DNA of 64,000 bases from Candidatus Entotheonellaceae bacterium (GTDB lineage: Bacteria; Tectomicrobia; Entotheonellia; Entotheonellales; Entotheonellaceae): positions 128,001-192,000 of the forward strand of contig OZ250173.1 in NCBI GenBank assembly GCA_965238075.1. Reading direction: 5' to 3'. The notes under the pieces were generated by a model, which was not told the origin of the DNA, searched no databases, and was given only the letters and a program-made list of their open reading frames with translations. A program made the position numbers and the translations under genes. This document shows positions 28,820 through 61,509 of the stretch, piece by piece; positions within the stretch are counted from its first letter, which is position 1; every line of letters starts with the position of its first letter.

Positions 28820-28978
28820 TAGAGCATTTTTGGTTCTTATTGGATCTCTCAATGCTCCAAAGGAGGTCATTCCGGGCTTGACCCGGAATCCAGCGGCCCC
28901 CCGAAAACCTCTGGACTCCGGCTTTCGCCGGAGTGACATGGACATAATGTCAAGCCATTATGGTCCGAAAGTTCTCTA
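28820..28978 (+). mobile_element. ~156-bp MITE copy 1 with palindromic REP/RPE-like core
   Basis: TAGAGCATTTT...AAAGTTCTCTA; core GTCATTCCGGGCTTGACCCGGAATCCAG...CTGGACTCCGGCTTTCGCCGGAGTGAC. Confidence 0.85.
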
Positions 28979-29421
28979 GCCCCAGGCATAATCCGATCTA
29001 CAATTTGATCGGCAGGAAACGGAATGAGTGGAGCTACAGGGAGCGGAGGAACTGCAGCACGGCTTTGTTTTCTCGTAAGAAGCGATGCGTCATCTGGCAT
29101 ATTTTCACTCGTTTTCTTGACGGGAGGAAGCTGCGCAGCCCGAAGGTAAGCCGTCCAACGGACGTTGGGAGGCAAGCGGTCTCACAACCCCGGTTCCACG
29201 CTCAACAAGGTGAGTCCGTCTCAACTAATTGGGGCCTAGTCACACGTAATGTGGGCCGAAGGGAAATTGCAGCCAGATAATCTGGACCGAAAACGGAGAT
29301 GGTTACTCAAGTCGATACAGATAGGGTCAAGTTTCGTTTCCGACAAGGGGTGCTCTATGATCGGCGACCCGGCCTAATCAAAGATGGCAATCGGATCAAC
29401 ACCGAGGATAAGGAGAGCGGA

Positions 29422-36669: not shown

Positions 36670-36825
36670 TAGAGCATTTTGGTTCTGATTGAATCGCTCA
36701 ATGCTCCAAGGCGGTCATTCCGGGCTTGACCCGGAATCCAGCGGCCCCCGAAAACCTCTGGACTCCGGCTTTCGCCGGAGTGACATGGACTTAATGTCAA
36801 GCCATTATGATCCGAAAGTGGTCTA
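36670..36825 (+). mobile_element. MITE copy 2
   Basis: Near-identical to 28820-28978. Confidence 0.85.
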
Positions 36826-37113
36826 GTCGTTCCCCCGTAAGCGTCGGCGCGAACAGGACCTCCCTCCGCGCTGCGCGTGGCATCCGGGTGAGGCAGCCCT
36901 GCAACTCTATCTTTACCACCTTCTGCAGCCTCGCAAACAGGTCCCGCACTGGAGCATGCGGTAGCGCTGAACCCGCAAGCCCAGTGTCCCAATCGGGGGC
37001 GGCGGCTCGTCCAGCACCGGACAGAGTACCTGTTTCTTACGCGTTCCCTGACACCGTTTCTTCCCTTCCTCGACCGCGATGTGGCGCGACACCGGGGCGT
37101 GTGGACCTCGGAT

Positions 37114-38190: not shown

Positions 38191-38255
38191 CTCCAACTCG
38201 AAGCCGTGGTCAAGGACCTTGGCAAAACGAGGCCGCGGCCTCAAAACTCGCGGAC

Positions 38256-38412
38256 TAGAGCACTTCTGGATCATAATGGCTTGACATTAAGTCCATGTCA
38301 CTCCGGCGAAAGCCGGGGTCCAGGGGTCTTCGGGGGCCGCTGGATTCCGGGTCAAGCCCGGAATGACCGCCTTGGAGCATTGAGCGATTCAATCAGAACC
38401 AAAAATGCTCTG
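38256..38412 (-). mobile_element. MITE copy 3 (inverted)
   Basis: Reverse complement of copies 1, 2 and 4. Confidence 0.85.
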
Positions 38413-38679
38413 GGAGCGTGCCTGGCAGCGGCAGTCCTCGCATCACGCGAGGGAGGTGTTACCGGCGACAGCGGTGATATGTCGAGGGGTGGGATAGCGG
38501 TCGATGCCCTCGAAGACGGGCCGGAGTTGTCGGAGACCGTATTAAGAAGCTATCGATTTATTAAGACCTCGACAAAGAAACGATTGATTCGTAAACATTG
38601 AGTTTAGGAACGGAGCGTTTCTCAGCTGTGACTCCCGGACCGGTCAATATCGCATCACAAGCTCCCTCGGAGAGGAGGT

Positions 38680-48536: not shown

Positions 48537-50156
48537 CTATTCGCTTGTCAACGGACCAAACCGTGCCGGCGGCTTGCGGTGTTGGGTGCCTTGTTCATAA
48601 GCATACGTATACCGGACGAGCTTACCTTCTTCGAACTCCTTCGCGATAAAGGTCAAGCCGGTTGGCAACCCATGATCGTTCGTGAATCCCGTGGGGACCG
48701 CGATGGCGGGCATGCCGGTGTGAGGGGAAATATGCTGGCTGTTGTCGCCATTGGGACTGTCCATGTCCCCGATTTTCCGAGGCTGATTGCTCCAGGTGGG
48801 GTAGACGAAGGCATCTACCTCGTGCTTGTCCATGGCTGCCTGAATCGCATTGCGAAACTCCTGGTTCTTCGCTTCGAGCTTTACACTCGTACAACTTCGT
48901 TCCGCAGGGTTCAGGTCTTGTTCCAGCGCAAATTTCATGCGTCCGTCGATATAGGGAAGATACAAGCCTGACGCGACGACTTCTCCCAGTTTTTTATAAG
49001 GTGCCTCAGGACCCAAGGTATCGAGATAGTTGTTGAAGTCAAAACGGAACGTGTTACACCATAGACGCCATGGGTCCGATTTGTCTTTCCCGTGGATCAT
49101 CTCTTCGAATCTGGGAATATCCATCTCAACCATGGTGGCGCCCAGGGCGCTCAAGTCTTCGACGGCTTGGTTGGTTAAGCGCCTGATCTCGGGGTCTGTG
49201 GTTTCCTGATTGAGGTGATAGCGAAAAACCCCGATGCGGGCACCCTTCAAACCATCCTTATCCAGAAACTTCAGGTAAGAATCCTCCACTCGACCGATGC
49301 TGGCCTCCGTCACCGGGTCCTGGGGATCATGCCCCGCGATCACCTCCAGAACGCGCACCGCATCCTCGACGGTACGACACAACGGCCCGCCGATGTCATT
49401 ACGCAAGAACAGCGGGATGATGCCGTCGCGGCTGGTCAGCCCCATCGTCGAACGTATCCCCACCAGACCGTTATGCGAGGACGGCCCGCGAATGGAATTC
49501 CCCGTGTCCGTGCCGAGTCCGATCACCCCCAGGTTGGAGGCAATCGCCGCCGCCGTACCCCCACTGGAGCCGGCCGGGACACGACTCAAGTCGTACGGGT
49601 TTCGGGTAATGCCATCGATAGAACTGACCGTGACGTAAGGACTGAAAGCCAATTCCGCCATATTGGACTTGCCGAGAATAATCGCCCCCGCCTCGCGAAG
49701 CTTCTTGATCTGGAACGCATCGTCAGGCGGCAGGGAGCCTTTGAGAGCCAAAGTGCCACCAGCAGTCTGCAAATCATACGTATCGTAATTGTCTTTCACG
49801 ACAGCCGGAATCCCGTGCAACGGCCTGAGCTGTCCCGTACGCTGAAATTCCGCATCCAATTCGTCCGCCCGGCTCAAGGCATTCGGGTTGAGCACAACGA
49901 AAGCATTCAATCTGGTGCTCTCGTCATAGGCCTCGATCCGATCCAAATACATCTGCACCAATTGCCGAAAGGTCAGATTTCCCGCTTTGACGTGATGGTG
50001 TATATCCGCAATCGTCGTTTCCATGATATTGAAGGTGTCCGACTGAGCAAGCGCCTGATCATTCACGATAAGGCCCTGCATGCCGAAGCTGAAAGCCATC
50101 ACGACAAATGCCATGGCCATTTCAAAAATCCGCAGCTTCTTAACAATTTGCCTCAT
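48537..50156 (-). CDS. Secreted amidase signature family enzyme
   Basis: Signal peptide; [27 protein letters not shown]. Confidence 0.9.
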
Positions 50157-50649: not shown

Positions 50650-51877
50650 TGACCCTGCCCCCTAGTTCCTGCCATTGGATAGTAGAGTCTGTTCACGATC
50701 GTTGCTCTTCACAACGCCGCTGTTAGGGCCTGCGGCGTAGAGCCATGAAACAGCTCACGTTCAGCATGCCCGTCAATACACCTGAGGCCGGCGTAGATGC
50801 TTGGCGGCAGGCCGCCCAACGAACTGTGCGGCCGGATCGTATTGTAGTCCCGCCTCCAGTCTTCAATGAGGTTGCGCGCCTCGCCTAATGTCGTGCATAA
50901 GTGCTCATTGAGGCATTCGTCCCGCAGCCTGCCGATGAAGCTTTCGACGAAGGCATTCTGGGTCGGCTTGCCCGGCGCGATGTAATGCCAGTTGATCCTG
51001 GCTTCCTGCGACCCCTTGAGGACCGCGTGACTGGTCAGCTCGGTGCCGTTATCCGAGACGATCAGGATAGGCCTGCCACGCAACGAGACGATGCGCTCCA
51101 GCTCTCGGGCAACCCGAACCCCTGAGAGCGAGAAATCCGGCACGATGGCCAAGGCTTCGCGCGAAAAGTCATCGACGATGCACAAGGCCCGAAACCGACG
51201 CCCATCGGGGCGACTTGGCACGACCCTCGGCTTGCGCGTCCCTAAAGCTCGCTTGCGGCCCCGCCTACGTCGCACCGCAAGCCCCTCTTCACGATAGAGG
51301 CGAAAGAGCTTCTTGTGATTCACCAGGGTGCCCTCACGTCGTAACAGGATGCCCAAGCGCCGATAGCCAAACCGGCGGCGCTCGCCGGCCACCATCTTTA
51401 GCCGCTCTCTCAGGGCCGCGTCCGTACCCAGCTTCTTGTGATACTGGAACGTGGAGCGATCCAGCGCCACCAGCTTGCACGCCCGCCGCTCGCTCAAGCC
51501 GTGTATCGTCATCACGTGATGCACGGCTCTTCGCTTGGCGTCGGGCGTCAGAAGTTTTTTGTCGCCAGCTCCTTCAGGGCGGCGTTGTCCAGCATGGCCT
51601 CGGCCAGGAGTCGTTTGAGGTTGCCGTTTTCCGCCTCCAGGGCGCGTAGCCTTCGCGCATCGCAGACGGTCATGCCACCAAACTTGGCCTTGTACTTGTA
51701 GAAGGTGGCGTCGCTGATGCCATGCTTGCGGCACACCTCGGAGGTCTTCAAGCCCGCCTCTTGCTCGCGGATCATGGCGATGATCTGCTGGTCCGTGAAT
51801 CTACGCTTCATAGAGTCCATTCTCCCAACTCCAAGGGACTCTACATCGTCGCGGCCCGGATTCAAGGGGCTGGGTCA
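50650..51877 (-). mobile_element. IS3 family element (orfA 51811-51548, orfB to 50709, -1 frameshift A6C); probably defective
   Basis: TGACCC..CCCC inverted ends; [11 protein letters not shown] orf[25 protein letters not shown] orfB; the WSxDF segment is missing. Confidence 0.9.
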
Positions 51878-52108
51878 CTGGAGGTCCTCGAATCTGTCGC
51901 GGATGTTGCCCGGGGTGAAATACAGACAGAGCACGACGTCGTAAAGGCATCCTCGATGTGCCAGCGCGGCATCGCCCACAAAAATTCGGGCATTGTCGAT
52001 ATGTTCTTTTCGCCAGAGGGCACGAGCGGCTTCCGCGATGGCCGAGGCCCGCAAGACCGCTTCTCCATGCACGAATGCCCTGGCAAGAACACGAACTCGC
52101 CAGGGCAC
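51878..52108 (-). pseudogene. Possible SAM methyltransferase fragment cut by IS3
   Basis: NARIFVGDA...YDVVLCLYFTPGN resembles class I MTase motifs. Confidence 0.3.
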
Positions 52109-52492
52109 TCCTTTTCACCCGGCACCACAAAAGCATCCCACCACGAGCAGCAGGCCGGAAACAGCACCGAGCAGGGGCAAGCGCACGCTCTACATGGTGG
52201 AGTGGATCAAACATCCCGAACTGCGGTTCATGCCAGGTAGGCAGGTCTGTGGAGACTGCTGTCAGCGGTTGTCGGGAAGCGATTTGGCAAGCGTCAACAG
52301 ATGCGACGATCAAAGGGCGGTTCCACCTCGTGCTACAGACCGGGCGCGAACCCTCGACGGAATGCTGCGGGAGAAAACTCGAGCAGTGGTACCCGAGACC
52401 ACAGGCAGGGGACAGCACCCCCGAAACGGAACCATGCGCTGCCCGAATGCCTCAACTTTTTTGCTCCCCTAAACCACGATTTCGGTGGCCTC

Positions 52493-53464
52493 TCAAGGAT
52501 CGGTGAGATGGAGATTCAGCGGTAGGTTCCCGTCTTCCGAGTCAACAATGTACTTCTTCACTTTGGGGAGGATCTTTTCCATGGCTTCCAGGTAGAGTCG
52601 GATCCTCGTTATATCGGGGGCCTTTTCGTACTCGGTAAGCAAGGCCAGAAACCGACCGCTGTTGCCGATGGCTTCCGCCGTTGTCTGTTCCTTGTAGCTT
52701 TGCGCTGCCAACACGAGCGTACGGGCCTCACCTCTGGCTTTGGGCAGCAGATTGTTCACATACGTCTTTGCTTCGTTGATCTTCTTGTCGCGGTCGGCCT
52801 GGGCGTTAACCACATCCTGGAAAGCCTGGGCGACCGACTTATCCAGCGTGATGGTCATGATATTGGCAGACGTGACCTGAACACCACTGTGGTAGCGGTC
52901 CAGTGCGGTTTGGGTACTGTTCTTGACGTGCTCCTGAATCGCCAGCCGTCCGGTGGTGAGTACTTCATCGACTGACATCCCGATCACGGCGGCGGTTAGA
53001 ATCGCCTCCGCCAAACTGCCAATGAGTGTTTGGGGCGCTTCGACTTCGAACAGATAATCAGTCGGTTGTTGAACGACGTATTGCAGCACCATACCCACGC
53101 CGATGATGTTGGTGTCTCCGGTCAAGAGTTCGATGCCTGTTATCACCTCTCCTTCCACCTCCGGGAGGACGAATCCTACTCCGCTTTTCATCACCGCGGT
53201 GGTCTTCAAGGTATCGACCCGATCCACGGGCCAAGGCAGCCGGTAATGTATCCCGGGCCCCAGTCGGGCGGCGAGACGTCCAAAGCGCCGTACCACGGCT
53301 TGCTCGTCCGCAGCCACAGCAAAAATACCCGAGGCGAGGTAGAGCAGTATGAGGACAACACCGAGGAGCCCCCCCAAGAAGACACGCTTCAGCATCCACG
53401 ACGCACCGGCGGTGGGAGCGATGTCATCATGGTCCGGGGGAGACTGGGAGGCGGTTGTGTCCAT
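52493..53464 (-). CDS. hflK: HflK-like SPFH protein
   Basis: TM, EQAVVRRFG, GIHYRLPWP, LLTGDTNII, AFQDVVNAQ, LPKARGEA, APDITRIRLYLEAMEKIL. Confidence 0.88.
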   Translation of the reverse strand: MDTTASQSPPDHDDIAPTAGASWMLKRVFLGGLLGVVLILLYLASGIFAVAADEQAVVRRFGRLAARLGPGIHYRLPWPVDRVDTLKTTAVMKSGVGFVLPEVEGEVITGIELLTGDTNIIGVGMVLQYVVQQPTDYLFEVEAPQTLIGSLAEAILTAAVIGMSVDEVLTTGRLAIQEHVKNSTQTALDRYHSGVQVTSANIMTITLDKSVAQAFQDVVNAQADRDKKINEAKTYVNNLLPKARGEARTLVLAAQSYKEQTTAEAIGNSGRFLALLTEYEKAPDITRIRLYLEAMEKILPKVKKYIVDSEDGNLPLNLHLTDP

Positions 53465-53467
53465 GAT

Positions 53468-54394
53468 CTACTCTTGTGTCTGCGGCTGCGGATCAGGGTC
53501 CAACAGTTGCAGGGCTTCTGCATCGGCAGGAAAGAAAACGGTGGTGTTAGCATCCAGAAATTTCTCGTAAGCCTCCAGGGTGCGGAGGAATTTATAAAAT
53601 GGCGGATTGGCACGGAAAGCCTTGGCGTAAATTCGCATGGCTTCCGCATCGCCTGCACCCTTCAAGCGCTCCCCCTCTTTGTACGCTTCGGCCAGGATAT
53701 AGCCCTTCTTCCGTTCGCCCGCAGCGATAAGCTTCTTGAATTCTCGCCCTCCTTCAGAGCGGTGTCGCATGGCGATCCTGCCCCGTTCCGCCTTCATACG
53801 CGCAAAGACACTGGCGCGGTTTTGCTCTGGAAACATCAATTGCCGCAGCCACACGTCCACCACCTCGATACCGTAGTGCGACAGCGCTGCCTTGGAGACA
53901 CGCCCCCGGATCTCGGAAAGAATGGTTTGGTACTGGGTTTCCTGGCCGCGCGGAGCGATTATGGCAGCGAATGGATAGGTCCCCAGAACCGTACCGATTT
54001 CCGCAAAGACGATGTCGATAAGCCGGGCCTCGGCCTGTGTCCCGGTAACTACACGCTCTAGAAAGGCCTCGGGTTCCGCGATCTTCCACGTCACCAGGCT
54101 TTGGACCACAATGTTTTTCTTATCCTGGGTGAGATATTCGGCCCTGGGAGGTTTAAAGCTCAACAAGCGTTTTGGCAGGCGTACCACGCTTTCGATGGGG
54201 GTGGGCAACTTGAAGCGCAACCCAGGCTCGTCGATGACGCGCATCACCTGGCCGAAGCGGGTAACCACCACGTACTCTGTGATGTCGACAGCAAAAAAAC
54301 TCGCCTTGAGCCCCACGGCAAGGAGCACGACTCCCAAAAGCGTCAGTGTTCTAACGAGCTTGGTTTGGAAGACTGTATGTTGCATTGTCAGCAC
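53468..54394 (-). CDS. hflC: HflC-like SPFH protein
   Basis: VVTRFG, PGLRFKLP, LTQDKKN, VFARMKAER, FYKFLRTLEAY. Confidence 0.88.
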   Translation of the reverse strand: MLTMQHTVFQTKLVRTLTLLGVVLLAVGLKASFFAVDITEYVVVTRFGQVMRVIDEPGLRFKLPTPIESVVRLPKRLLSFKPPRAEYLTQDKKNIVVQSLVTWKIAEPEAFLERVVTGTQAEARLIDIVFAEIGTVLGTYPFAAIIAPRGQETQYQTILSEIRGRVSKAALSHYGIEVVDVWLRQLMFPEQNRASVFARMKAERGRIAMRHRSEGGREFKKLIAAGERKKGYILAEAYKEGERLKGAGDAEAMRIYAKAFRANPPFYKFLRTLEAYEKFLDANTTVFFPADAEALQLLDPDPQPQTQE

Positions 54395-54416
54395 TCACGC
54401 GGTCTGCTAGGCCCAC

Positions 54417-54573
54417 TAGAGCATTTTCGGTTCGGAATGAATCGCACAATGCTCCGAGGCGGTCATTCCGGTCTTGACCCGGAATCCAGCGGCCCCCGAA
54501 AACCTCTGGACTCCGGCTTTCGCCGGAGTGACATGGATTTAATGTCAAGCCATTATGATCCAAAAGTGCTCTA
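54417..54573 (+). mobile_element. MITE copy 4, inserted at the CTAG containing the permease-HflK stop codon
   Basis: CTAG on both sides (54416-54419 and 54571-54574). Confidence 0.85.
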
Positions 54574-56781
54574 GCGATTTTGCTTCATGCCATTGGGTTC
54601 GAGCAACCACAGATCGAGTTCGTTGACATCTTGACGAACCGGCCGAAGGAATTTCTGCACCGGTGGAAGGACCTCCTCGGCGGTCTCGAGGCGCAGGCGA
54701 AATCGGGTGAGATCGGGGGCATCCTGGTATGCGTTCTGGCGCAGGCTGTAGGCCATTGCGTCGCCCTCGGCCCGCAAGATCTTTTCTTCTCGAAAAGCCA
54801 AGGCTTCCTCAATCATGGCCGCGGCCTCCCCTGAAGCGAGATTCACCTTCTCTCCGGCAAAGGTCAGGGCGCGATTTATGATATGCATTTTGTCTTCCTG
54901 TGCGCTGGCCACGTCCCGAAAAGCCTGATGCACGTCCTGGGGGGCATGCAGGTTGAGGAAACTGAGGGATACCACCTGCATGCCGGCCTGGTAGGCGTCC
55001 AAGAGATCTTGCACCCGCGCCAGACTTTGGCGCTCCATTGTGCCCCGCGCGGTCGTCAGAACCTCGTCAATACTGATTGTGCCGACCGTCTCTCGCAGCA
55101 CAGACAGGATCAGACTGCGTACGAGTGCGTCCGGCGCCGAGATGTTATAGGCATAGGCAATCGCATTATGGATGCGATATTGCACCGCAACGCTAAGGTC
55201 AACAATGTTGGCATCACCCGTTAACACGAAGGCCTCATCATCAACCTTCTCCTTTTGGAACCAGAAGCCAGTTGAGGCGATCGCCATGGGTACAGGGTTG
55301 CCCGGTCCGCCAACGGTCAGACGCTGTCGCGCCTGGGCGCGCACCGTGCCGCTCTGCGGGTCAGTGCTTCTGAAGCCGAGTTCAATGCGTCGGATCAGGT
55401 CCTTGTGCACGATCTGATGACTCGCAATAGGCCAGGGCAGACGGTAATGAAAACCAGGTGACAACTCCCCGGCCACAATTTGGCCAAAGCGCGACTTAAT
55501 GCCTACTGCTCCCGGTGGCACAGCAAAAATGCCGCTCGACAGATACAGCAGGGCTAACGCGAGCGCGGTAGCGCCTTGTAAACGCACGGCCGTCAGATGC
55601 ACCCCTGTATGGGCGGTGAGGCTATCGCGCACCCCCAGCCATTCCTCTGGTACATGGGTGCGTCGCATACTGAGGAACAACAAAGCTATGAAAATCACGG
55701 CGGCAGCGACTTTGACCTGTTCAGGCACCCCGCCGGTAGCACGTCCAAAGGTCGCCTGCGGTTCTATGTCCCAGGCCTGATAGAGCCAATTCAACGTATA
55801 GCCGGCCAACAGGGTCATCACCACAATGGCGCCCAGGTAGATGGCAACGATCTTCCGTCCCAGAAATTTCAACAGGATAGGAAAACTTCCCAGGTTTGTG
55901 GCTGGACCTGCCAGCAGAAACACCAGCGCGGCCCCAGGGTTCAACCCCTTCAGCACCAGTGCCGCAGCAATCGGGGTCGAGGAGGACGCACACGTGTATA
56001 TGGGGATCCCGAGGATGAGCATGGCCACCATGGTGGTGAAGCCGCCGCTCAAATAGCGTTCGATGATGGAGGCAGGCAAGAGGACTGCCACGAGGCCCGA
56101 CAGGACAATGCCCAGCACCAGCCAGTGACTGGTATCGTCCAGCAAGTCACGGAAAGCATAGGTAAAGATCGTTCGGACAGTCGTATAGGACCCAACTGAT
56201 GCTCCTGGTGTGACTGCCTTGTCGCTTTCAGCATGAGATAAGTGGGAAGTATGATCATGGTCATGAGTATGGGTATGATGCGGTGTGACTGTATGCGGCT
56301 CTGGCAGAGTTGTGTCGGGATGGGAGGCGTCCTGTTCTACCGCAGGTTCGGTGGTGGTGGTTTCCCTCTCGCCCCAAAAATTGGTTGCGATGCCAGCAGC
56401 GATCGCCGTGGCCATAGCAGACAAGGGGCGAAAAATGGTCATCAGTGGATCCAGCAAGGCGTAACTCAAGCTGATTGAATCTACTCCCGTCTCCGGGGTT
56501 GCAATGAGAAATGAGACAGTCGCCCCTGGCGTTGCGCCCTGTCGCCGCAATCCCAAGGCCGTAGGCAACACCCCGCAGGAGCACAGAGGTAGTGGCATGC
56601 CCAGCGTTGAGGCCCATAACACCGACTTGATCTTACCGGTACCGAAGAAACGCAGGAGGGTTTTCAGAGGCATGAGAACAGCGAGAACACCGGCGACCAG
56701 AAAGCCGAACAGGAGAAAAATGCCTGCTTCTTTGACCACAAACCAGGTCTCTTGCGCAACCTGGAGCAAAAACTCAATCAC
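54571..56781 (-). CDS. Fusion of a DUF318/SO_0444-type (ArsP-like) metal permease with His-rich loop and a C-terminal HflK domain
   Basis: PLPLCSCGVLP, FLIATPETGVDS, HHTHTHDHDH, PIYTCASSSTP, FLLAGPATN; then GFHYRLPWP, LTGDANIV, AFRDVASAQED, APDLTRFRL in one frame. Confidence 0.88.
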   Translation of the reverse strand: MIEFLLQVAQETWFVVKEAGIFLLFGFLVAGVLAVLMPLKTLLRFFGTGKIKSVLWASTLGMPLPLCSCGVLPTALGLRRQGATPGATVSFLIATPETGVDSISLSYALLDPLMTIFRPLSAMATAIAAGIATNFWGERETTTTEPAVEQDASHPDTTLPEPHTVTPHHTHTHDHDHTSHLSHAESDKAVTPGASVGSYTTVRTIFTYAFRDLLDDTSHWLVLGIVLSGLVAVLLPASIIERYLSGGFTTMVAMLILGIPIYTCASSSTPIAAALVLKGLNPGAALVFLLAGPATNLGSFPILLKFLGRKIVAIYLGAIVVMTLLAGYTLNWLYQAWDIEPQATFGRATGGVPEQVKVAAAVIFIALLFLSMRRTHVPEEWLGVRDSLTAHTGVHLTAVRLQGATALALALLYLSSGIFAVPPGAVGIKSRFGQIVAGELSPGFHYRLPWPIASHQIVHKDLIRRIELGFRSTDPQSGTVRAQARQRLTVGGPGNPVPMAIASTGFWFQKEKVDDEAFVLTGDANIVDLSVAVQYRIHNAIAYAYNISAPDALVRSLILSVLRETVGTISIDEVLTTARGTMERQSLARVQDLLDAYQAGMQVVSLSFLNLHAPQDVHQAFRDVASAQEDKMHIINRALTFAGEKVNLASGEAAAMIEEALAFREEKILRAEGDAMAYSLRQNAYQDAPDLTRFRLRLETAEEVLPPVQKFLRPVRQDVNELDLWLLEPNGMKQNR

Positions 56782-56875
56782 CTCTGCTCCCCCCACACCA
56801 AATGGCCAACCGTAAGAAGAGGGAAAAGAGAGGAAGAAAAGTCCCCCCCTCTCTTCATCCCTCTATCTTTCCAGC

Positions 56876-57910
56876 CTATTGGGGTAAGTACCTTTTATCC
56901 AACTGACAGGCGACGGAATAACTCGGGTCGACCGCGTTGGCGATCTCCAAGCTAGCTGCCTGCCCCAGAAGCTGGTTGGCCTCAAGCTTGTCATACCCAT
57001 AGTCTTCCACGAGCCAGTTGATCAGGTCGACACAAGCCAGCCTAAGGGCATCGATTAAGGGCCGTGTACTGCCGATGGACATGATATGGGTATCGTTTAC
57101 CAGTCTCGGCCAATTGATGCTTTTTCCCTTGATCAGATCAACGGTGAATTGCACGTCCATTGAGGTTTCGATGGCAGCACCATCGATCTCGCCATCCCCT
57201 TGGGCGGCATGGCCATCACCGATCATGAGCAACGCACCCGGCTCAAACACCGGAAAGTACATGGTGACGCCGGATACCACCTCATTGAAATCCATATTGG
57301 CACCGTGGGGGCCTGGGGTCAGGGAACTCCAGCACTCTTTTCCCGCCGTGACTGTCCCGATGGTTCCAAGGAATGGACGCAGGGGGACTTCCACTCTGCC
57401 AATTTTGCTCTTGGGCATGTCCAGGATGCCAACATTCCTCTCCAGGTCCAAGTTCCAGACAAAGAGGATATCCGGCGCCGGTTCGGTAATCATGGCCGTT
57501 TTGTACTCCGGTTCCAAGGTGCCAAAGTAGGGGATCGAACCGCCCCAACCCCAGTCCCGATTCGGAACGACTTTTTCGAGATGGACCACCAAGGTGTCCC
57601 CAGGCTCAGCCCCTTCGATGTAGAACGGACCGGTCTGGGGGTTCACCCTACTCAGATCGAGCTTGGGAAAGAGGGTCTTGTCAGTGGTGGAATAGACATC
57701 ATTAGACGCATCTCGCGTGGTGGTGATCACCGTATCACCAGGTGAGATGCGCATCGCCGGGGGGTGGGAATGGCAATAGGTGAAATACACCGTGTCACCC
57801 GGATCGTATTCCACGGTCGCCGCCGCCGCCGGGAGCGTCAAGATGAGCCCCATCATGACAGCCAACATCACCTGAACAGCTACCATCTTGCTATTGCACA
57901 AATGCCGCAT
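56876..57910 (-). CDS. Acetamidase/formamidase (FmdA_AmdA) family protein with signal peptide
   Basis: NPQTGPFYIEGAEPGDTL, PFLGTIG, HGANMD, GDGHAAQGDGE, AIET; N-terminal hydrophobic stretch ending AAAA. Confidence 0.88.
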   Translation of the reverse strand: MRHLCNSKMVAVQVMLAVMMGLILTLPAAAATVEYDPGDTVYFTYCHSHPPAMRISPGDTVITTTRDASNDVYSTTDKTLFPKLDLSRVNPQTGPFYIEGAEPGDTLVVHLEKVVPNRDWGWGGSIPYFGTLEPEYKTAMITEPAPDILFVWNLDLERNVGILDMPKSKIGRVEVPLRPFLGTIGTVTAGKECWSSLTPGPHGANMDFNEVVSGVTMYFPVFEPGALLMIGDGHAAQGDGEIDGAAIETSMDVQFTVDLIKGKSINWPRLVNDTHIMSIGSTRPLIDALRLACVDLINWLVEDYGYDKLEANQLLGQAASLEIANAVDPSYSVACQLDKRYLPQ

Positions 57911-57990
57911 ACATGTCTCCTTTGCCTCATTACATAAAGATATAAAGAAAATCGTCACTTAGCTGAAACGTCTACAACACGACCTCTCCC

Positions 57991-58968
57991 CTACTGCCCC
58001 GCCACGTCCATCGGCCTCACCTCCTCCCTGTTCTGGAGCACTGGCGAACGCGGGTCATGAGTCCGAAAGTAGTAGGTGCTGTCATAGAGCATGTGGAACA
58101 ACTCAGAATCCAAAGCCAAGACCATTGTTGTTTGGGAATCGATGGAGCGGCGATAGGTCTGCAGCGTCCGCAGGAAGGTGTAGAACTCCGGATCTTTGCT
58201 CAGCGTCTCAGCATAAATCCGCGCCGCTTCGGCTTCCCCTTCGCCCCGATACTGCTGGGCAATTTTCAAGGCCTCGGCCATGATCGTGGCTTTTTCTCGG
58301 TCCGCGGTGGCCCGGATCTTCAGCCCTTCCTCCTCCCCTTCGGAGCGGTATCGCATACTGATGCGCGTACGCTCCGATTTCATGCGAGAGAACACACTGC
58401 TGCGGTTCTGAGCTGGGAAGTCCAAGCGCTGCAGCCGCACGTCGACCACGGCAATGCCGTAATCCCGCAGGGCAATCTCACGACATTCCCGGGCGACGGT
58501 GGCAAGGATGGCCTCAGCCCGGTAGCCCTCGGGATCCGTTGACACAAAGGCCGTCAGAGGATGCTGTCCGATGGCAGCGCCCAACGCTGCAAAGAGGATA
58601 TCGCTCAGTCGTGAAGCTGCTCCCGAGCGATCGAAAACGGTCTGGAGGAACTTTTGCGGGTCGGCAACGCGCCACAAAACAGCGCTGGCAGCGATGACAG
58701 TGGTCTTTTCCAGGGTGAGGAATTCGCCCAAAGGAGGAACGAGGATAAACAGGCGATTATCGAACCGGGTCACATTATGATAGGGATATTTGAGCTTCAG
58801 CCCCGGAGTTTTGATGACCCGTATAGGATTGCCGAATGCCGTGACCACCGCATATTCGCTGGCATCGACCGTGAAGAAGCAGAGGGTGCCCAGGAATGTC
58901 ACGCAAACGGCTGCACCCAGCAACACGACGGCCCTCACGCGTCCTTTGCCACCGGAGGTCATGGGCAC
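57991..58968 (-). CDS. hflC: HflC-like SPFH protein
   Basis: AVVTAFG, PGLKLKYP, VFSRMKSER, RSEGEEEG, DPEFYTFLRTLQTY. Confidence 0.88.
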   Translation of the reverse strand: MPMTSGGKGRVRAVVLLGAAVCVTFLGTLCFFTVDASEYAVVTAFGNPIRVIKTPGLKLKYPYHNVTRFDNRLFILVPPLGEFLTLEKTTVIAASAVLWRVADPQKFLQTVFDRSGAASRLSDILFAALGAAIGQHPLTAFVSTDPEGYRAEAILATVARECREIALRDYGIAVVDVRLQRLDFPAQNRSSVFSRMKSERTRISMRYRSEGEEEGLKIRATADREKATIMAEALKIAQQYRGEGEAEAARIYAETLSKDPEFYTFLRTLQTYRRSIDSQTTMVLALDSELFHMLYDSTYYFRTHDPRSPVLQNREEVRPMDVAGQ

Positions 58969-59819
58969 CGAACCTCTTATGAGAGAAGGAGCTAAATGGA
59001 AGGAACCCTGCGACGAATCAGGATTTGCCCATCCTTAGCATTACTTTCCTGATACTGTCAAGCGTCAATATTTCGGGCAGTTCTGACAGCAAGGTAATCG
59101 CACGAACCCTCCAATTTCATAGTGTTGCCCAACGCAACCGAGAAAGGAGGCGCTTCGTGCGACTGCTTCAGCGTTACTGCCGTAACTCACCCATAGCGGC
59201 CGGTCACATGCGCAACCTCCACCTGGAAGTTTGACCCTACAAGTCGGCGGTATCCCAAAAACAGACAGGGTCTTCACCGATTCCAGGCGTTTGGCACGAA
59301 AGGGTGCCGAAGAAAAAGCGGTTGTTTACCCGGTATTGGCATATGGAGATGTTCCGGGTTTATACATCGGACTCTAATGCCAGTCGTGCGCCTCGGGCAT
59401 CCGCAGGCGGGGTGTCGACGGCTTTCAGGTCCGACACGATGACAGCGCATTGCAGGCGAGACAAGGTGGGCGGGAAAAACCAGAAATAAAGCACTGGAAC
59501 AGAATATGGTGAGCGAGAGGCCCCTTTTCATAAAGTTGATCGGGGAAGGAGGTATTATCGGTGCGACGCCCTCCCCTAAGCAGGACTCTGTTCATAGCCA
59601 TCGGCGTTTTGACGACTTGAGAAATACGGCGCTGAGATTGTACATCCCGGTTGCCTCGACCCTTTTGGGTGCGATGGTGAAGTATCTCCTTTCTCCGAGT
59701 GAAATAGGCACCGCGTCAACCATCGCCGTGGCGTAACCAACTTGGAGTCCTGGAGACCCCGCTGGTTTCGGCCGTGCAAGCCATGCAGCTTAGCCCGCAC
59801 AAGGCAACAGCGCCAAGAT

Positions 59820-59888
59820 ACCCACTCATGAGAGGGTTGCCGATACTGGTGTCAGGGCGTATAAATGAAATTGATAACGGTTTTCATT
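59820..59888 (+). promoter_or_regulatory. Palindrome (59820-59837), sigma70 promoter TTGCCG-N17-TATAAA (59837-59865) and Fur-like box (59870-59888), copy 2
   Basis: ACCCACTCATGAGAGGGT; AATGAAATTGATAACGGTTTTCATTATTAT; homologous to 971-1038. Confidence 0.75.
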
Positions 59889-59939
59889 ATTATGTTACTG
59901 TGGCGGGAAGAACTTCCAAACACCGGGGGTAAGCCGTTC

Positions 59940-60189
59940 ATGGACTCGGTTGGTGTGAACCTGCAAAAACTGCGTGCTTCAGGATTTTGGCTGCCGGCTG
60001 CGGCAGATGCGCAAGATGCGGCGGCTGCGCCAAATGGATTTGGCCTCGTTCGGGCTAAGCTACAGGTACTACCAGCGGATCGAGGCGGGCCACGTGAACC
60101 CTACCCTGATTACCATGCACCGGCTGGCATCGGCGTTTGACGTGTCGGTGCACGATTTGTTCCGCCCGGAGATTCCAACGGAGGCCTAA
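59940..60189 (+). pseudogene. XRE regulator copy 2, +1 frameshift in an A5 run (or shorter intact form from GTG 59974)
   Basis: MDSVGVNLQK aligns to copy 1 MDSVVADIQE; remainder LQDFGCRLRQMRK...TEA lies in the next frame. Confidence 0.75.
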
Positions 60190-60333
60190 GGCGACTGATT
60201 CCGCGCAAGCCGCGCTCTCGTTGTCGCCTTAAGCGCTCCTCAGCTCACCCTTTGAACACATTGCCTCACGCCCTTCCCCCTCTGCGTCAGGCACACCCGG
60301 CAGGGGTCGCCGTGGGCTCCTGCCACTGCCTGA
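60187..60333 (+). ncRNA. Candidate structured 3'-UTR sRNA, copy 2
   Basis: Hairpins at 60202-60214 (inside stem 60187-60231), 60262-60293 (loop CCTTCCCCCTCT) and 60299-60324. Confidence 0.55.
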
Positions 60334-60423
60334 GGGATTGGTTGACCTCAACGGGGAACCTGACAAGGTGCAATTCGCAACACCCCGCGCCATCCACAAA
60401 GGTAGGCATTCATTCCCGTTAAC

Positions 60424-61509
60424 TCAACCGAGCCGATGCGGCTCCAGCTTTTCCCAGATGAAATCGACGCTGTGGCCGGGGCGTTCCGGGGCGCGGGCCA
60501 TGCCGTTGACGATGGGCAGAGGCACCTCCACGTAAGGCTCAACGCCGAAGCCGTGGATTTCGAGGTGGTTGGCGTTGGGAATGGCGGCCAGCAGGTGAAC
60601 GTGCAAGTCGTGGACGCCGTGCGAGGTGATGGGCAGGTTGTGGGCTTCGGCCATGTGCGCCACCTTCATCCATGGCGTGATGCCGCCGCAGTTGGTGACG
60701 TCGGGCTCGACGAACGACACGGCATTGGCAACCATGAACTTCTGGAACTCGTAAATGGTGTGCAGGTTCTCGCCGGCAGCGACGGGCGTCAGGCCCTCGG
60801 CAACGATGCGGGCGTGACCGGCGACGTCGTCGGGAATGGTGGGTTCCTCCAGCCAATAGACATCGTGCTCCGCCAGGGCGCGGGAGCGGCGAATCGCTTC
60901 GTCGACCGACCACTTCATGTTGGCGTCGACCATCAGGTGCACGTCCGCCCCGATTTCGTTACGCACCGCCCCGACGCGCTCGATGTCCTCGCCTAGCGTC
61001 TCCTTGCCCACGCGCATCTTGACGGCGTGAAAGCCGCTGTCCACCAGCTTTCGGTTCTGCGCGATCAGTTCGGGAATCGAAAAATTGAAATTGATGCTGC
61101 CAGCGTAGGCGTGCACATCCGGATTGTGCCCGCCGAGCAGGCGCCAGAGCGGAACGCCGAGCTTGCGAGCCTTGAGGTCCCACAGCGCGATGTCGATGGC
61201 CGACATGGCGAAGCTGGCCGCGCCGCCGCGTCCGGCGTAGTGCACGTGCCACCACATGTCTTTCCAGAGCGCCTCGATCAGGTCGGCATCGCGGCCTTGC
61301 AGAAACGGGCCCAGCTCGCCGTCGATGAGCGCGGCGATGCTCTTGCCGCTGTTGAGGGCGTAGGTATAACCGACGCCTTCCACCCCGTCGCCGTCGCGCA
61401 GGCGCACGACAACGAATTCGGAGTGAGTCATTTTGCCGTGCATGGAATCCTGCATGACGAACGGCAGCGGCAGGCGGTACAGAGAGGTTTCAACGTGCGT
61501 GATGGACAA
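60424..61509 (-). CDS. Mandelate racemase/muconate lactonizing enzyme family protein
   Basis: SAIDIALWDL, KMRVG, MVDAN, WLEEP, AGEN, PDV. Confidence 0.9.
   Translation of the reverse strand: MSITHVETSLYRLPLPFVMQDSMHGKMTHSEFVVVRLRDGDGVEGVGYTYALNSGKSIAALIDGELGPFLQGRDADLIEALWKDMWWHVHYAGRGGAASFAMSAIDIALWDLKARKLGVPLWRLLGGHNPDVHAYAGSINFNFSIPELIAQNRKLVDSGFHAVKMRVGKETLGEDIERVGAVRNEIGADVHLMVDANMKWSVDEAIRRSRALAEHDVYWLEEPTIPDDVAGHARIVAEGLTPVAAGENLHTIYEFQKFMVANAVSFVEPDVTNCGGITPWMKVAHMAEAHNLPITSHGVHDLHVHLLAAIPNANHLEIHGFGVEPYVEVPLPIVNGMARAPERPGHSVDFIWEKLEPHRLG

Follow-up and report, generated by a model that had tools for sequence, protein, structure and literature searches.

The 64,000 nt stretch analysed here (the window) is part of the genome of Candidatus Entotheonellaceae bacterium (GCA_965238075.1, contig OZ250173.1, positions 128,001-192,000 of the forward strand), which is a single contig of 3.35 Mb. 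At positions 52493-58968 it carries a cassette of five intact minus-strand open reading frames (ORFs), all open, in which a heavy-metal permease is fused to an HflK-type SPFH protein. Coordinates are positions within the 64,000 nt window unless they are marked as genome positions. The first gene of the cassette (57991-58968, minus strand) encodes HflC1, a 325 aa HflC-like SPFH protein with a Band_7 domain that scores 179.7 bits against TIGR01932 (hflC; cut-off 134.4). Its likely start is the ATG at 58962, which is preceded by an AAGAGG motif. The second gene (56876-57958, minus strand) encodes a 360 aa FmdA/AmdA-family hydrolase with a signal peptide (PF03069 FmdA_AmdA, 115.8 bits; cut-off 27), and the third (54571-56796, minus strand) encodes the 741 aa permease::HflK fusion. 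Residues 18-374 of the fusion match the SO_0444 Cu/Zn efflux family NF033936 (374.2 bits, cut-off 300; model positions 2-348 of 351) and Pfam ArsP_1, and residues 425-716 match TIGR01933 (hflK; 176 bits, cut-off 159.4). Together with the fusion, the last two genes make up what we term the three-gene core. They encode the HflC-like SPFH protein HflC2 (53468-54394, minus strand; 308 aa; TIGR01932, 173.5 bits) and the free HflK-like SPFH protein HflK2 (52493-53464, minus strand; 323 aa; TIGR01933, 226.7 bits). All four SPFH proteins thus exceed the curated TIGR cut-offs for HflK or HflC. A previous sequence-only reading of this DNA had described five co-oriented genes with two HflC and two HflK units, and a metal-permease fusion and an exported FmdA/AmdA enzyme placed between the SPFH genes. 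The ORFs, the Pfam and NCBIfam scores and the signal peptide confirm this description.

An AlphaFold2 model of the fusion protein, computed from 86 sequences (mean predicted local distance difference test score, pLDDT, 81.1), contains two helical permease repeats (residues 2-141 and 203-341) with a disordered His-rich loop (147-198) between them; the wider 45-226 span includes 11 His residues. An extra transmembrane helix (359-379) and a short helix precede the HflK membrane anchor (403-420), after which come the SPFH domain, a long coiled coil (a 73-residue helix, 620-692) and short C-terminal strands. This succession of N-terminal anchor, SPFH domain, long coiled coil and C-terminal strands is the architecture of HflK and HflC. 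In a Foldseek search with the model, the C-terminal half alone was matched, and the best matches are chains of the E. coli cage (7vhq_E, E 2.9e-14, then 9cz2 and 7wi3). The best 50 of the 51 matches at E <= 0.001 are all chains of SPFH or vault-type assemblies, and no solved transporter is among them. Within the permease half, none of the 86 aligned fusions and none of the 20 locus-derived fusions departs from Cys72-Ser73-Cys74 (CSC) or from Cys269 of the second repeat. The CSC motif has been named for this permease family (bioRxiv 10.1101/2022.07.06.499078).

The N-terminus of the fusion is acidic, residues 45-56 after the first helix include four Lys/Arg, and four Arg/Lys lie in the loop preceding the HflK anchor. 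Likewise, three Lys/Arg precede the anchor of HflC1 (residues 14-32), and the free HflK has Lys/Arg before its single anchor; in HflC2, the stretch that leads into the one anchor is short and uncharged. By the positive-inside rule, this charge distribution suggests that the N-terminus of the fusion faces out, the His-rich loop faces in and the SPFH domain is periplasmic, as in E. coli HflK.

A search over 5.8 billion proteins returned at least 3300 matches to the fusion, and the best 120 are all 678-746 aa long and all include both Pfam domains. In a scan of one genome per prokaryotic species, at least 581 loci with a relative of the fusion were confirmed, and the counts that follow rest on the best 80. 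Carriers among these 80 include Alpha-, Beta- and Gammaproteobacteria, Rokubacteria, Gemmatimonadota, Planctomycetota, Acidobacteriota, Zixibacteria, Eisenbacteria, Entotheonella-like metagenome-assembled genomes (MAGs) and others. Cultured carriers include Bradyrhizobium erythrophlei, B. australiense and Bradyrhizobium sp. ARR65. HflC and then HflK lie directly 3' of the fusion gene in 64 of the 67 loci with at least 2.3 kb of downstream room; the exceptions have neither gene (L043), have the order HflC-HflK-fusion (L047) or lie on a contig that is too short (L090). The full five-gene order, with HflC and the hydrolase directly upstream of the fusion, is present in 27 of the 65 loci with upstream room. 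The three-gene core, which occurs across many phyla, is the older and wider form, and the five-gene form is found in Proteobacteria and Rokubacteria.

We also carried out a check centred on the hydrolase, using 80 metagenome contigs with orthologues at 67-85% identity. Among contigs with room, these close orthologues have HflC upstream in 59 of 64 and the fusion downstream in 50 of 54. Because the five-gene arrangement recurs gene for gene in other phyla, it lies far beyond chance. The sequence-only reading had made its interpretation depend on conservation of the gene set in other genomes, and the counts for the core, for the five-gene form and around the hydrolase all bear this conservation out. 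The fused form was not seen on plasmids, in that 0 of 47 matching records of a plasmid collection cover at least 80% of the fusion.

Beyond the cassette, no conserved partner was found in the flanks of the 27 five-gene loci (135 ORFs) or in those of 45 three-gene loci (89 of 165 candidate ORFs scanned, selected by hand). Neighbours beyond the five genes differ by lineage, and transposases flank several loci. Because these flanks are not conserved, we regard the five genes as one self-contained unit. In other loci the fusion and HflC2 genes abut or overlap, with overlaps of 4 bp. Internal stops in some HflC1 reference sequences, considered as possible signs of pseudogenes, proved to be natural stop codons overrun by tblastn.

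Some neighbours of three-gene cassettes recur in small groups of loci. A large TPR-repeat protein is divergently encoded beside the cassette in L047, L048, L053, L054 and L055; one of these loci is titled Candidatus Eiseniibacteriota and the others are from unclassified bacterial MAGs, and the L047 protein also has multihaem cytochrome motifs. Also, a von Willebrand A-domain gene (product ~580-695 aa) lies just past HflK in L019 (5997-8081), L063 (8433-10178), L076 (13866-15944), L084 (14112-16187) and L097 (14151-16235), given in the coordinates of each locus. These loci are the host genome (with a weak cobaltochelatase-type match), three related ones titled Tectimicrobiota/Entotheonella and one from Phycisphaerae.

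The host genome has a housekeeping hflK-hflC pair at 2.5 Mb (genome position), which has higher family scores (288.9 and 258.7 bits) than the cassette proteins. The relationship between the two sets was assessed with a tree of 77 SPFH domains (quick IQ-TREE likelihood, with support from the Shimodaira-Hasegawa-like approximate likelihood-ratio test, SH-aLRT, only), taken from the window cassette, a sister cassette in the same genome (described below), 18 other loci and, for the housekeeping pair, five genomes. Cassette HflC proteins form one clade (support 95) apart from housekeeping HflC, and free cassette HflK proteins form another (support 98), whose sister group is housekeeping HflK (96). 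The fused K domains diverge at deeper nodes and are not resolved among themselves. The cassette SPFH proteins are thus not orthologues of the housekeeping pair, and the grouping with canonical hflKC that the sequence-only reading had named as counterevidence is not what the tree recovers. Within the five-gene form, each of the four SPFH proteins makes up its own clade (support 100 each). HflC1, which is limited to this form, nests among the HflC proteins of three-gene cassettes, indicating that it arose by duplication within the cassette.

The fused SPFH domain carries a clade-specific insert at about residues 478-514, which is modelled at low confidence. The segment that holds it measures 57-61 residues in all 7 five-gene fusions compared, versus 29-49 residues in all 13 three-gene fusions. 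Because the insert appears together with HflC1 and the hydrolase, it is a candidate docking site.

In E. coli, HflK/C cages hold FtsH. The cassette proteins resemble that system (7vhq/7vhp, 7wi3, 9cz2) in the SPFH domain, the coiled coil, the C-terminal strands and the type II anchor. Also, K and C genes lie side by side in both, and the cassette proteins pass the TIGR01933 and TIGR01932 cut-offs. The cassette differs in having one K subunit fused to a permease of ~400 residues, in having two paralogues of the K type and one or two of the C type where E. coli has one of each, in forming clades apart from the housekeeping pair of its own genome, and in the insert of the fused SPFH domain. The likeness raises the alternative that the cassette SPFH proteins dock FtsH, alone or mixed with housekeeping HflKC, and deliver the permease for regulated degradation, for example on a change in metal. 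Apart from the family scores, this proposal can draw on the two FtsH genes of the genome, on the HflK/C-FtsH cage structures 7vhq, 7wi3 and 9cz2 as best structural matches, and on coiled-coil lengths equal to those of the housekeeping pair. Specifically, the coiled-coil segments of all K and C proteins, cassette and housekeeping alike, show no differences in length when aligned, which makes the subunits geometrically compatible with one another. However, the separate clades argue against FtsH-linked turnover, a permanently fused client would be an odd design for a substrate, and a scaffold fused to three classes of transporter (see below) points to transport rather than proteolysis. We therefore consider it quite unlikely.

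The sequence-only reading had also remarked on the lack of ftsH and hflX nearby. Neither gene is present in the window, which corresponds to 128-192 kb of the genome; the ftsH genes are located at 3.15 and 2.94 Mb of the genome, and hflX at 249.5 kb. This observation holds but carries no argument, because no SPFH locus of the genome, the housekeeping pair included, adjoins ftsH.

A link between the scaffold and metal transport comes from proteins outside the cassette. A search for longer relatives of the free HflK2 gave 18 matches, seven with P-type ATPase domains, one with a cation diffusion facilitator (CDF) domain, two with the ATPase hydrolase domain only and eight with Band_7 only. NCBIfam models applied to eight of the 18 identified a heavy-metal P1B ATPase with a C-terminal HflK in four and a CDF protein joined to HflK in one. 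The permease of the cassette, the CDF protein and the P1B ATPase are unrelated metal-transporter families, each joined to an HflK-type subunit, which argues that metal transport is their shared business. Furthermore, P0126 and P0127 (671 aa, Band_7 only) are single-chain HflC::HflK fusions, P0126 being 62% identical to HflK2. Such 'Rosetta stone' fusions argue that K and C subunits touch.

The metal is probably Zn and/or Cu. Shewanella oneidensis SO_0444 (NF033936; ArsP_1), to which the permease half is alike (374 bits, with a CSC motif and a His-rich loop), is reported to be required when cells grow under stress from ZnSO4 or CuCl2, and is annotated as Cu/Zn efflux (PMC3219624). It is described there as sharing an operon with a ZntR-like regulator; the cassette permease is instead fused to HflK and has no such adjacent regulator.

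Two systems of other bacteria have several SPFH genes close to a heavy-metal transporter. In the PA2434-PA2439 cluster of P. aeruginosa (the P-type ATPase gene hmtA and PaFlo5-7), which we liken to the cassette by description only, three SPFH genes adjoin the transporter, and the patchy distribution suggestive of horizontal gene transfer (PMC13086221) is also like that of the cassette. In a znuA mutant starved of zinc, transcripts of the SPFH genes PA2437-PA2439 are reported to be 9- to 14-fold up (PMC4542158), and the proteins are reported to increase in zinc-depleted cultures (PMC11761036). Deletion of the SPFH genes is reported to give subtle phenotypes only, in assays described without metal stress (PMC13086221). 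In the accessible passages of these sources, the transporter is not described as fused and no hydrolase is mentioned. The second system, on the conjugative plasmid NZ_CP018172.1 of Aquibium oceanicum (L215, 16552-20197; annotation as deposited), is an hflK-hflC-hflK trio that has the K-C-K order of the cassette. A heavy-metal P-type ATPase is encoded two genes away, and an Nramp transporter and a two-component system are nearby, but the trio is unfused (the first hflK encodes 515 aa) and has no hydrolase. A search of open-access papers and preprints gave no account of a transporter joined to an HflK-type protein or of the five-gene operon, and the words permease, fused and transporter are absent from a 2009 survey of prokaryotic SPFH proteins. 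The sequence-only reading's statement that it knew of no characterised system with this organisation therefore stands for the open-access literature.

The exported hydrolase is 44% identical (hand count from the alignment; E 3.9e-61) to PDB entry 5ubu, a 'putative acetamidase/formamidase'. Two motifs, HGxNxD (HGANMD, residues 218-223) and GDxHAxxGDGE (GDGHAAQGDGE, residues 247-257), are common to it, 5ubu and 2ii1. Because these motifs of solved family members are kept, the protein is probably an active hydrolase. It scores 83.6 bits against the formamidase equivalog NF045496 (cut-off 500), so the name 'formamidase' used in the sequence-only reading has to be dropped. Its Sec-type signal peptide has a cleavage site, assigned by eye, near AAA/AT at about residue 47. 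In 44 of 45 N-termini inspected by eye, from a set of 107 orthologues, a basic start, a hydrophobic run and an Ala-x-Ala-type site are present, and cleavage falls directly before the conserved mature end (A)E-x-x-YDPGD; the divergent L044 is the exception. Residues Cys62, His65, Cys209, Cys309 and Cys351 are invariant in 71 orthologues, and none is found at the aligned positions of 5ubu. The four Cys residues, with His65, could form two disulfides or a thiolate metal site. No statement on the metal content of such hydrolases was found in the literature on the acetamidase/formamidase family.

Compared with the acetamidase/formamidase structures 5ubu, 2ii1, 3tkk, 2f4l and 3b9t (which has a Tat signal), the cassette hydrolase has full-length similarity and common motifs, and differs in its Sec signal, its four invariant Cys and His65, and its linkage to SPFH genes. 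It is the most conserved of the five proteins, with 71-85% identity across phyla versus 49-60% for the fusion. Complex prediction for HflC1 (residues 33-325) and the mature hydrolase (47-360), both supplied as alignments, gave a score of 0.00 in both runs, a value that bears on binding in neither direction.

These properties bear on whether the hydrolase belongs to the system at all. It might be an unrelated passenger that scavenges amide nitrogen, with the SPFH proteins serving as an open regulatory or lipid-microdomain partner that gates or stabilises the permease in the manner of stomatin. Such an arrangement would have parallels in solved assemblies of stomatin with transport proteins (for example 9zd2, aquaporin 1 with stomatin) and in the open, nautilus-like forms of HflK/C (9cz2), and an amidase-signature gene does lie nearby (48537-50156). 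We find it improbable because nearly all close orthologues of the hydrolase adjoin HflC and the fusion (59/64 and 50/54), and because the hydrolase, unlike a passenger, is the most conserved part of the cassette. Also, three or four different SPFH subunits that bear cap strands at their C-termini suggest a defined hetero-oligomer.

Alternatively, permease and hydrolase could act on the same compound: the permease would move an organometal that reacts with thiols, or a ligand with an amide group (a metallophore, for example), the hydrolase would process it in the periplasm, and the scaffold would keep both together. The Pfam family of the permease is ArsP_1, a family that has been classed with organoarsenical exporters and whose substrates may be inorganic or organometallic (bioRxiv 10.1101/2022.07.06.499078), and the hydrolase keeps the motifs of solved family members. 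However, the three-gene form lacks the hydrolase in most phyla, which implies that the enzyme is dispensable for the core function, and the other fused clients (CDF and P1B ATPase) are inorganic-ion pumps. The failure against the formamidase equivalog (83.6 bits, cut-off 500) counts against this reading as well. We judge a transporter-enzyme pair of this kind to be very unlikely.

A second, three-gene cassette is present in the host genome at genome positions 228147-232270 on the minus strand, ~45 kb from the window. It encodes a 701 aa permease::HflK fusion that is 37% identical to that of the window, followed by HflC and HflK, and has neither the hydrolase nor the extra HflC. The host genome thus has both cassette forms, and its only two ArsP_1 permeases are both HflK fusions. 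MAGs titled 'uncultured Candidatus Entotheonella sp.' have near-identical versions of the sister cassette and of the housekeeping genes, and one of these MAGs has the three-gene cassette only, as judged by a Band_7 search. No orthologue of the hydrolase was found in five genomes of the same genus (91-93% complete), and the best match in 60 other relatives searched is a 42%-identical paralogue. The G+C content of the window cassette is 0.545-0.58 versus 0.62-0.66 just upstream, and an IS3-family transposase gene with rve domains (50709-51734, minus strand) lies ~760 bp beyond the end of the cassette. Because of the low G+C content, the IS3 element and the lack of a hydrolase orthologue in the five same-genus genomes, horizontal acquisition looks to be the simplest reading of the window copy.

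The downstream segment 48537-52418 encodes, on the same strand, a 205 aa ORF with no family assignment, the IS3-family transposase, a 151 aa ORF with no family assignment and the amidase-signature enzyme mentioned above (PF01425, 48537-50156, 316.6 bits). All lie in the lower-G+C stretch and may be one acquired island.

A dispersed, hairpin-rich repeat of ~160 bp (54395-54570), resembling miniature inverted-repeat transposable elements (MITEs) or repetitive extragenic palindromes (REPs), is inserted between the fusion gene and HflC2, where the genes of other loci abut or overlap. It has 45 matches in the host genome, five of them near full length at 89-94% identity, and further window copies lie at about 28820-28980, 36670-36826 and 38255-38428. 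Two other hairpins were noted on the minus strand. One (56823-56856), in the 79 bp gap between the hydrolase and fusion genes, has a purine/pyrimidine-rich, 15-pair stem and a T-rich tail. It may be an attenuator or partial terminator that could reduce read-through into the three core genes. The other, terminator-like, is at 52378-52397, ~100 bp past the last cassette gene.

An Rfam scan of 51500-60600 at a permissive threshold detected no riboswitch and only a chance-level miRNA match (E 0.61), at hairpin 56823-56856. A motif search in 63 upstream regions found no metal-regulator palindrome common to them, and found lineage-specific promoter-like boxes ~95-115 nt before the start (for example, CTTGTCAA...CAGACT). 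The operon is matched at 95-99% identity by contigs from the RNA libraries of two studies, one of which is listed as a sponge metagenome. One run covers 30 of 30 bins and bridges the HflK2/HflC2, fusion/hydrolase and hydrolase/HflC1 borders. RNA libraries may hold DNA carry-over, and a contig that spans two genes is not equivalent to a single transcript; with this proviso, the contigs are consistent with transcription of the operon in a near relative. The bin that contains the repeat has a summed depth of >800 and many of its contigs continue into unrelated sequence, which indicates that the ~160 bp repeat is abundant in those communities.

The features of the cassette, its relatives and its evolutionary history lead us to propose, with a probability of roughly 0.6, that this mobile operon encodes a dedicated HflK/HflC-type scaffold in which one K subunit is covalently joined to its client, a heavy-metal permease. 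The client would be the thiol-lined SO_0444/ArsP-family permease, welded to a K-type subunit, and the SPFH parts would face the periplasm, as in E. coli HflK/C. Fused K, free K and HflC subunits would assemble together, K alternating with C, in a ring or an arc (in the five-gene form with the repeat unit Kfusion-C2-K2-C1), so that several permeases would be held in one membrane patch. This assembly would control or localise the movement of metal across the inner membrane, with a role in either detoxifying efflux or metal supply under scarcity. HflC1, the insert of the fused SPFH domain and the exported amidohydrolase would have been gained together as an add-on, and the enzyme would most likely work, or be metallated, at the scaffold platform.

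Several points weigh against this proposal. The assembly itself, the placement of the permease inside a ring, the contact between enzyme and scaffold and the link of the enzyme to metal are steps that we infer, as the sequence-only reading did for its four-subunit cage around a metal transporter. The direction of efflux would rest on one fitness study of an unfused homologue, and the induction of the P. aeruginosa SPFH genes on zinc depletion appears to fit metal supply better than detoxification. Zip or ZnuA zinc importers adjoin 4 of 45 three-gene loci and a ZIP gene adjoins 1 of 27 five-gene loci, which hints at a zinc link in some lineages that is not the rule. Furthermore, no metal-sensing regulator is conserved at the five-gene loci: MerR is absent from the flanks of all 27 and from the window neighbours scanned, and is found at 1 of 45 three-gene loci (L058). 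The Rfam scan likewise gave no riboswitch. The equal coiled-coil lengths would also allow mixing with housekeeping HflKC, and hence with FtsH. The five-gene form is a single clade, so the co-occurrence of insert and add-on genes amounts to one evolutionary event. Finally, in the window itself the repeat insertion broke the tight fusion-HflC2 junction.

A more elaborate form of the scaffold proposal, which we hold to be doubtful, is a periplasm-facing SPFH vault built from the repeat fused K-C2-free K-C1, with a ring of metal permeases in its floor and the exported, Cys-bearing amidohydrolase captured by it. If this were true, the cassette would form a membrane-bound chamber: metal pumped out of the cytoplasm would stay enclosed there and pass to the enzyme without diffusing away. 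The CDF::HflK and P1B-ATPase::HflK proteins would then be further versions of it, and SPFH cages would be general metal-handling compartments.

What is new here is an HflK/C-type scaffold with its client built in, encoded by a widespread, mobile operon. How SPFH cages (HflK/C, prohibitins, stomatin, flotillin) affect the membrane proteins that they surround is a long-standing question, one reason being that their clients are bound loosely and variably. Here the client is welded to the scaffold, and this has happened with three unrelated classes of metal transporter. The compact operon in cultured, harmless soil Bradyrhizobium would offer a defined stoichiometric complex for structures and simple metal phenotypes for genetics. 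A scaffold of this kind would mean that zinc and copper homeostasis in bacteria has a layer not recognised before, and would give a function to a widespread exported hydrolase that is annotated merely as 'acetamidase/formamidase family'.

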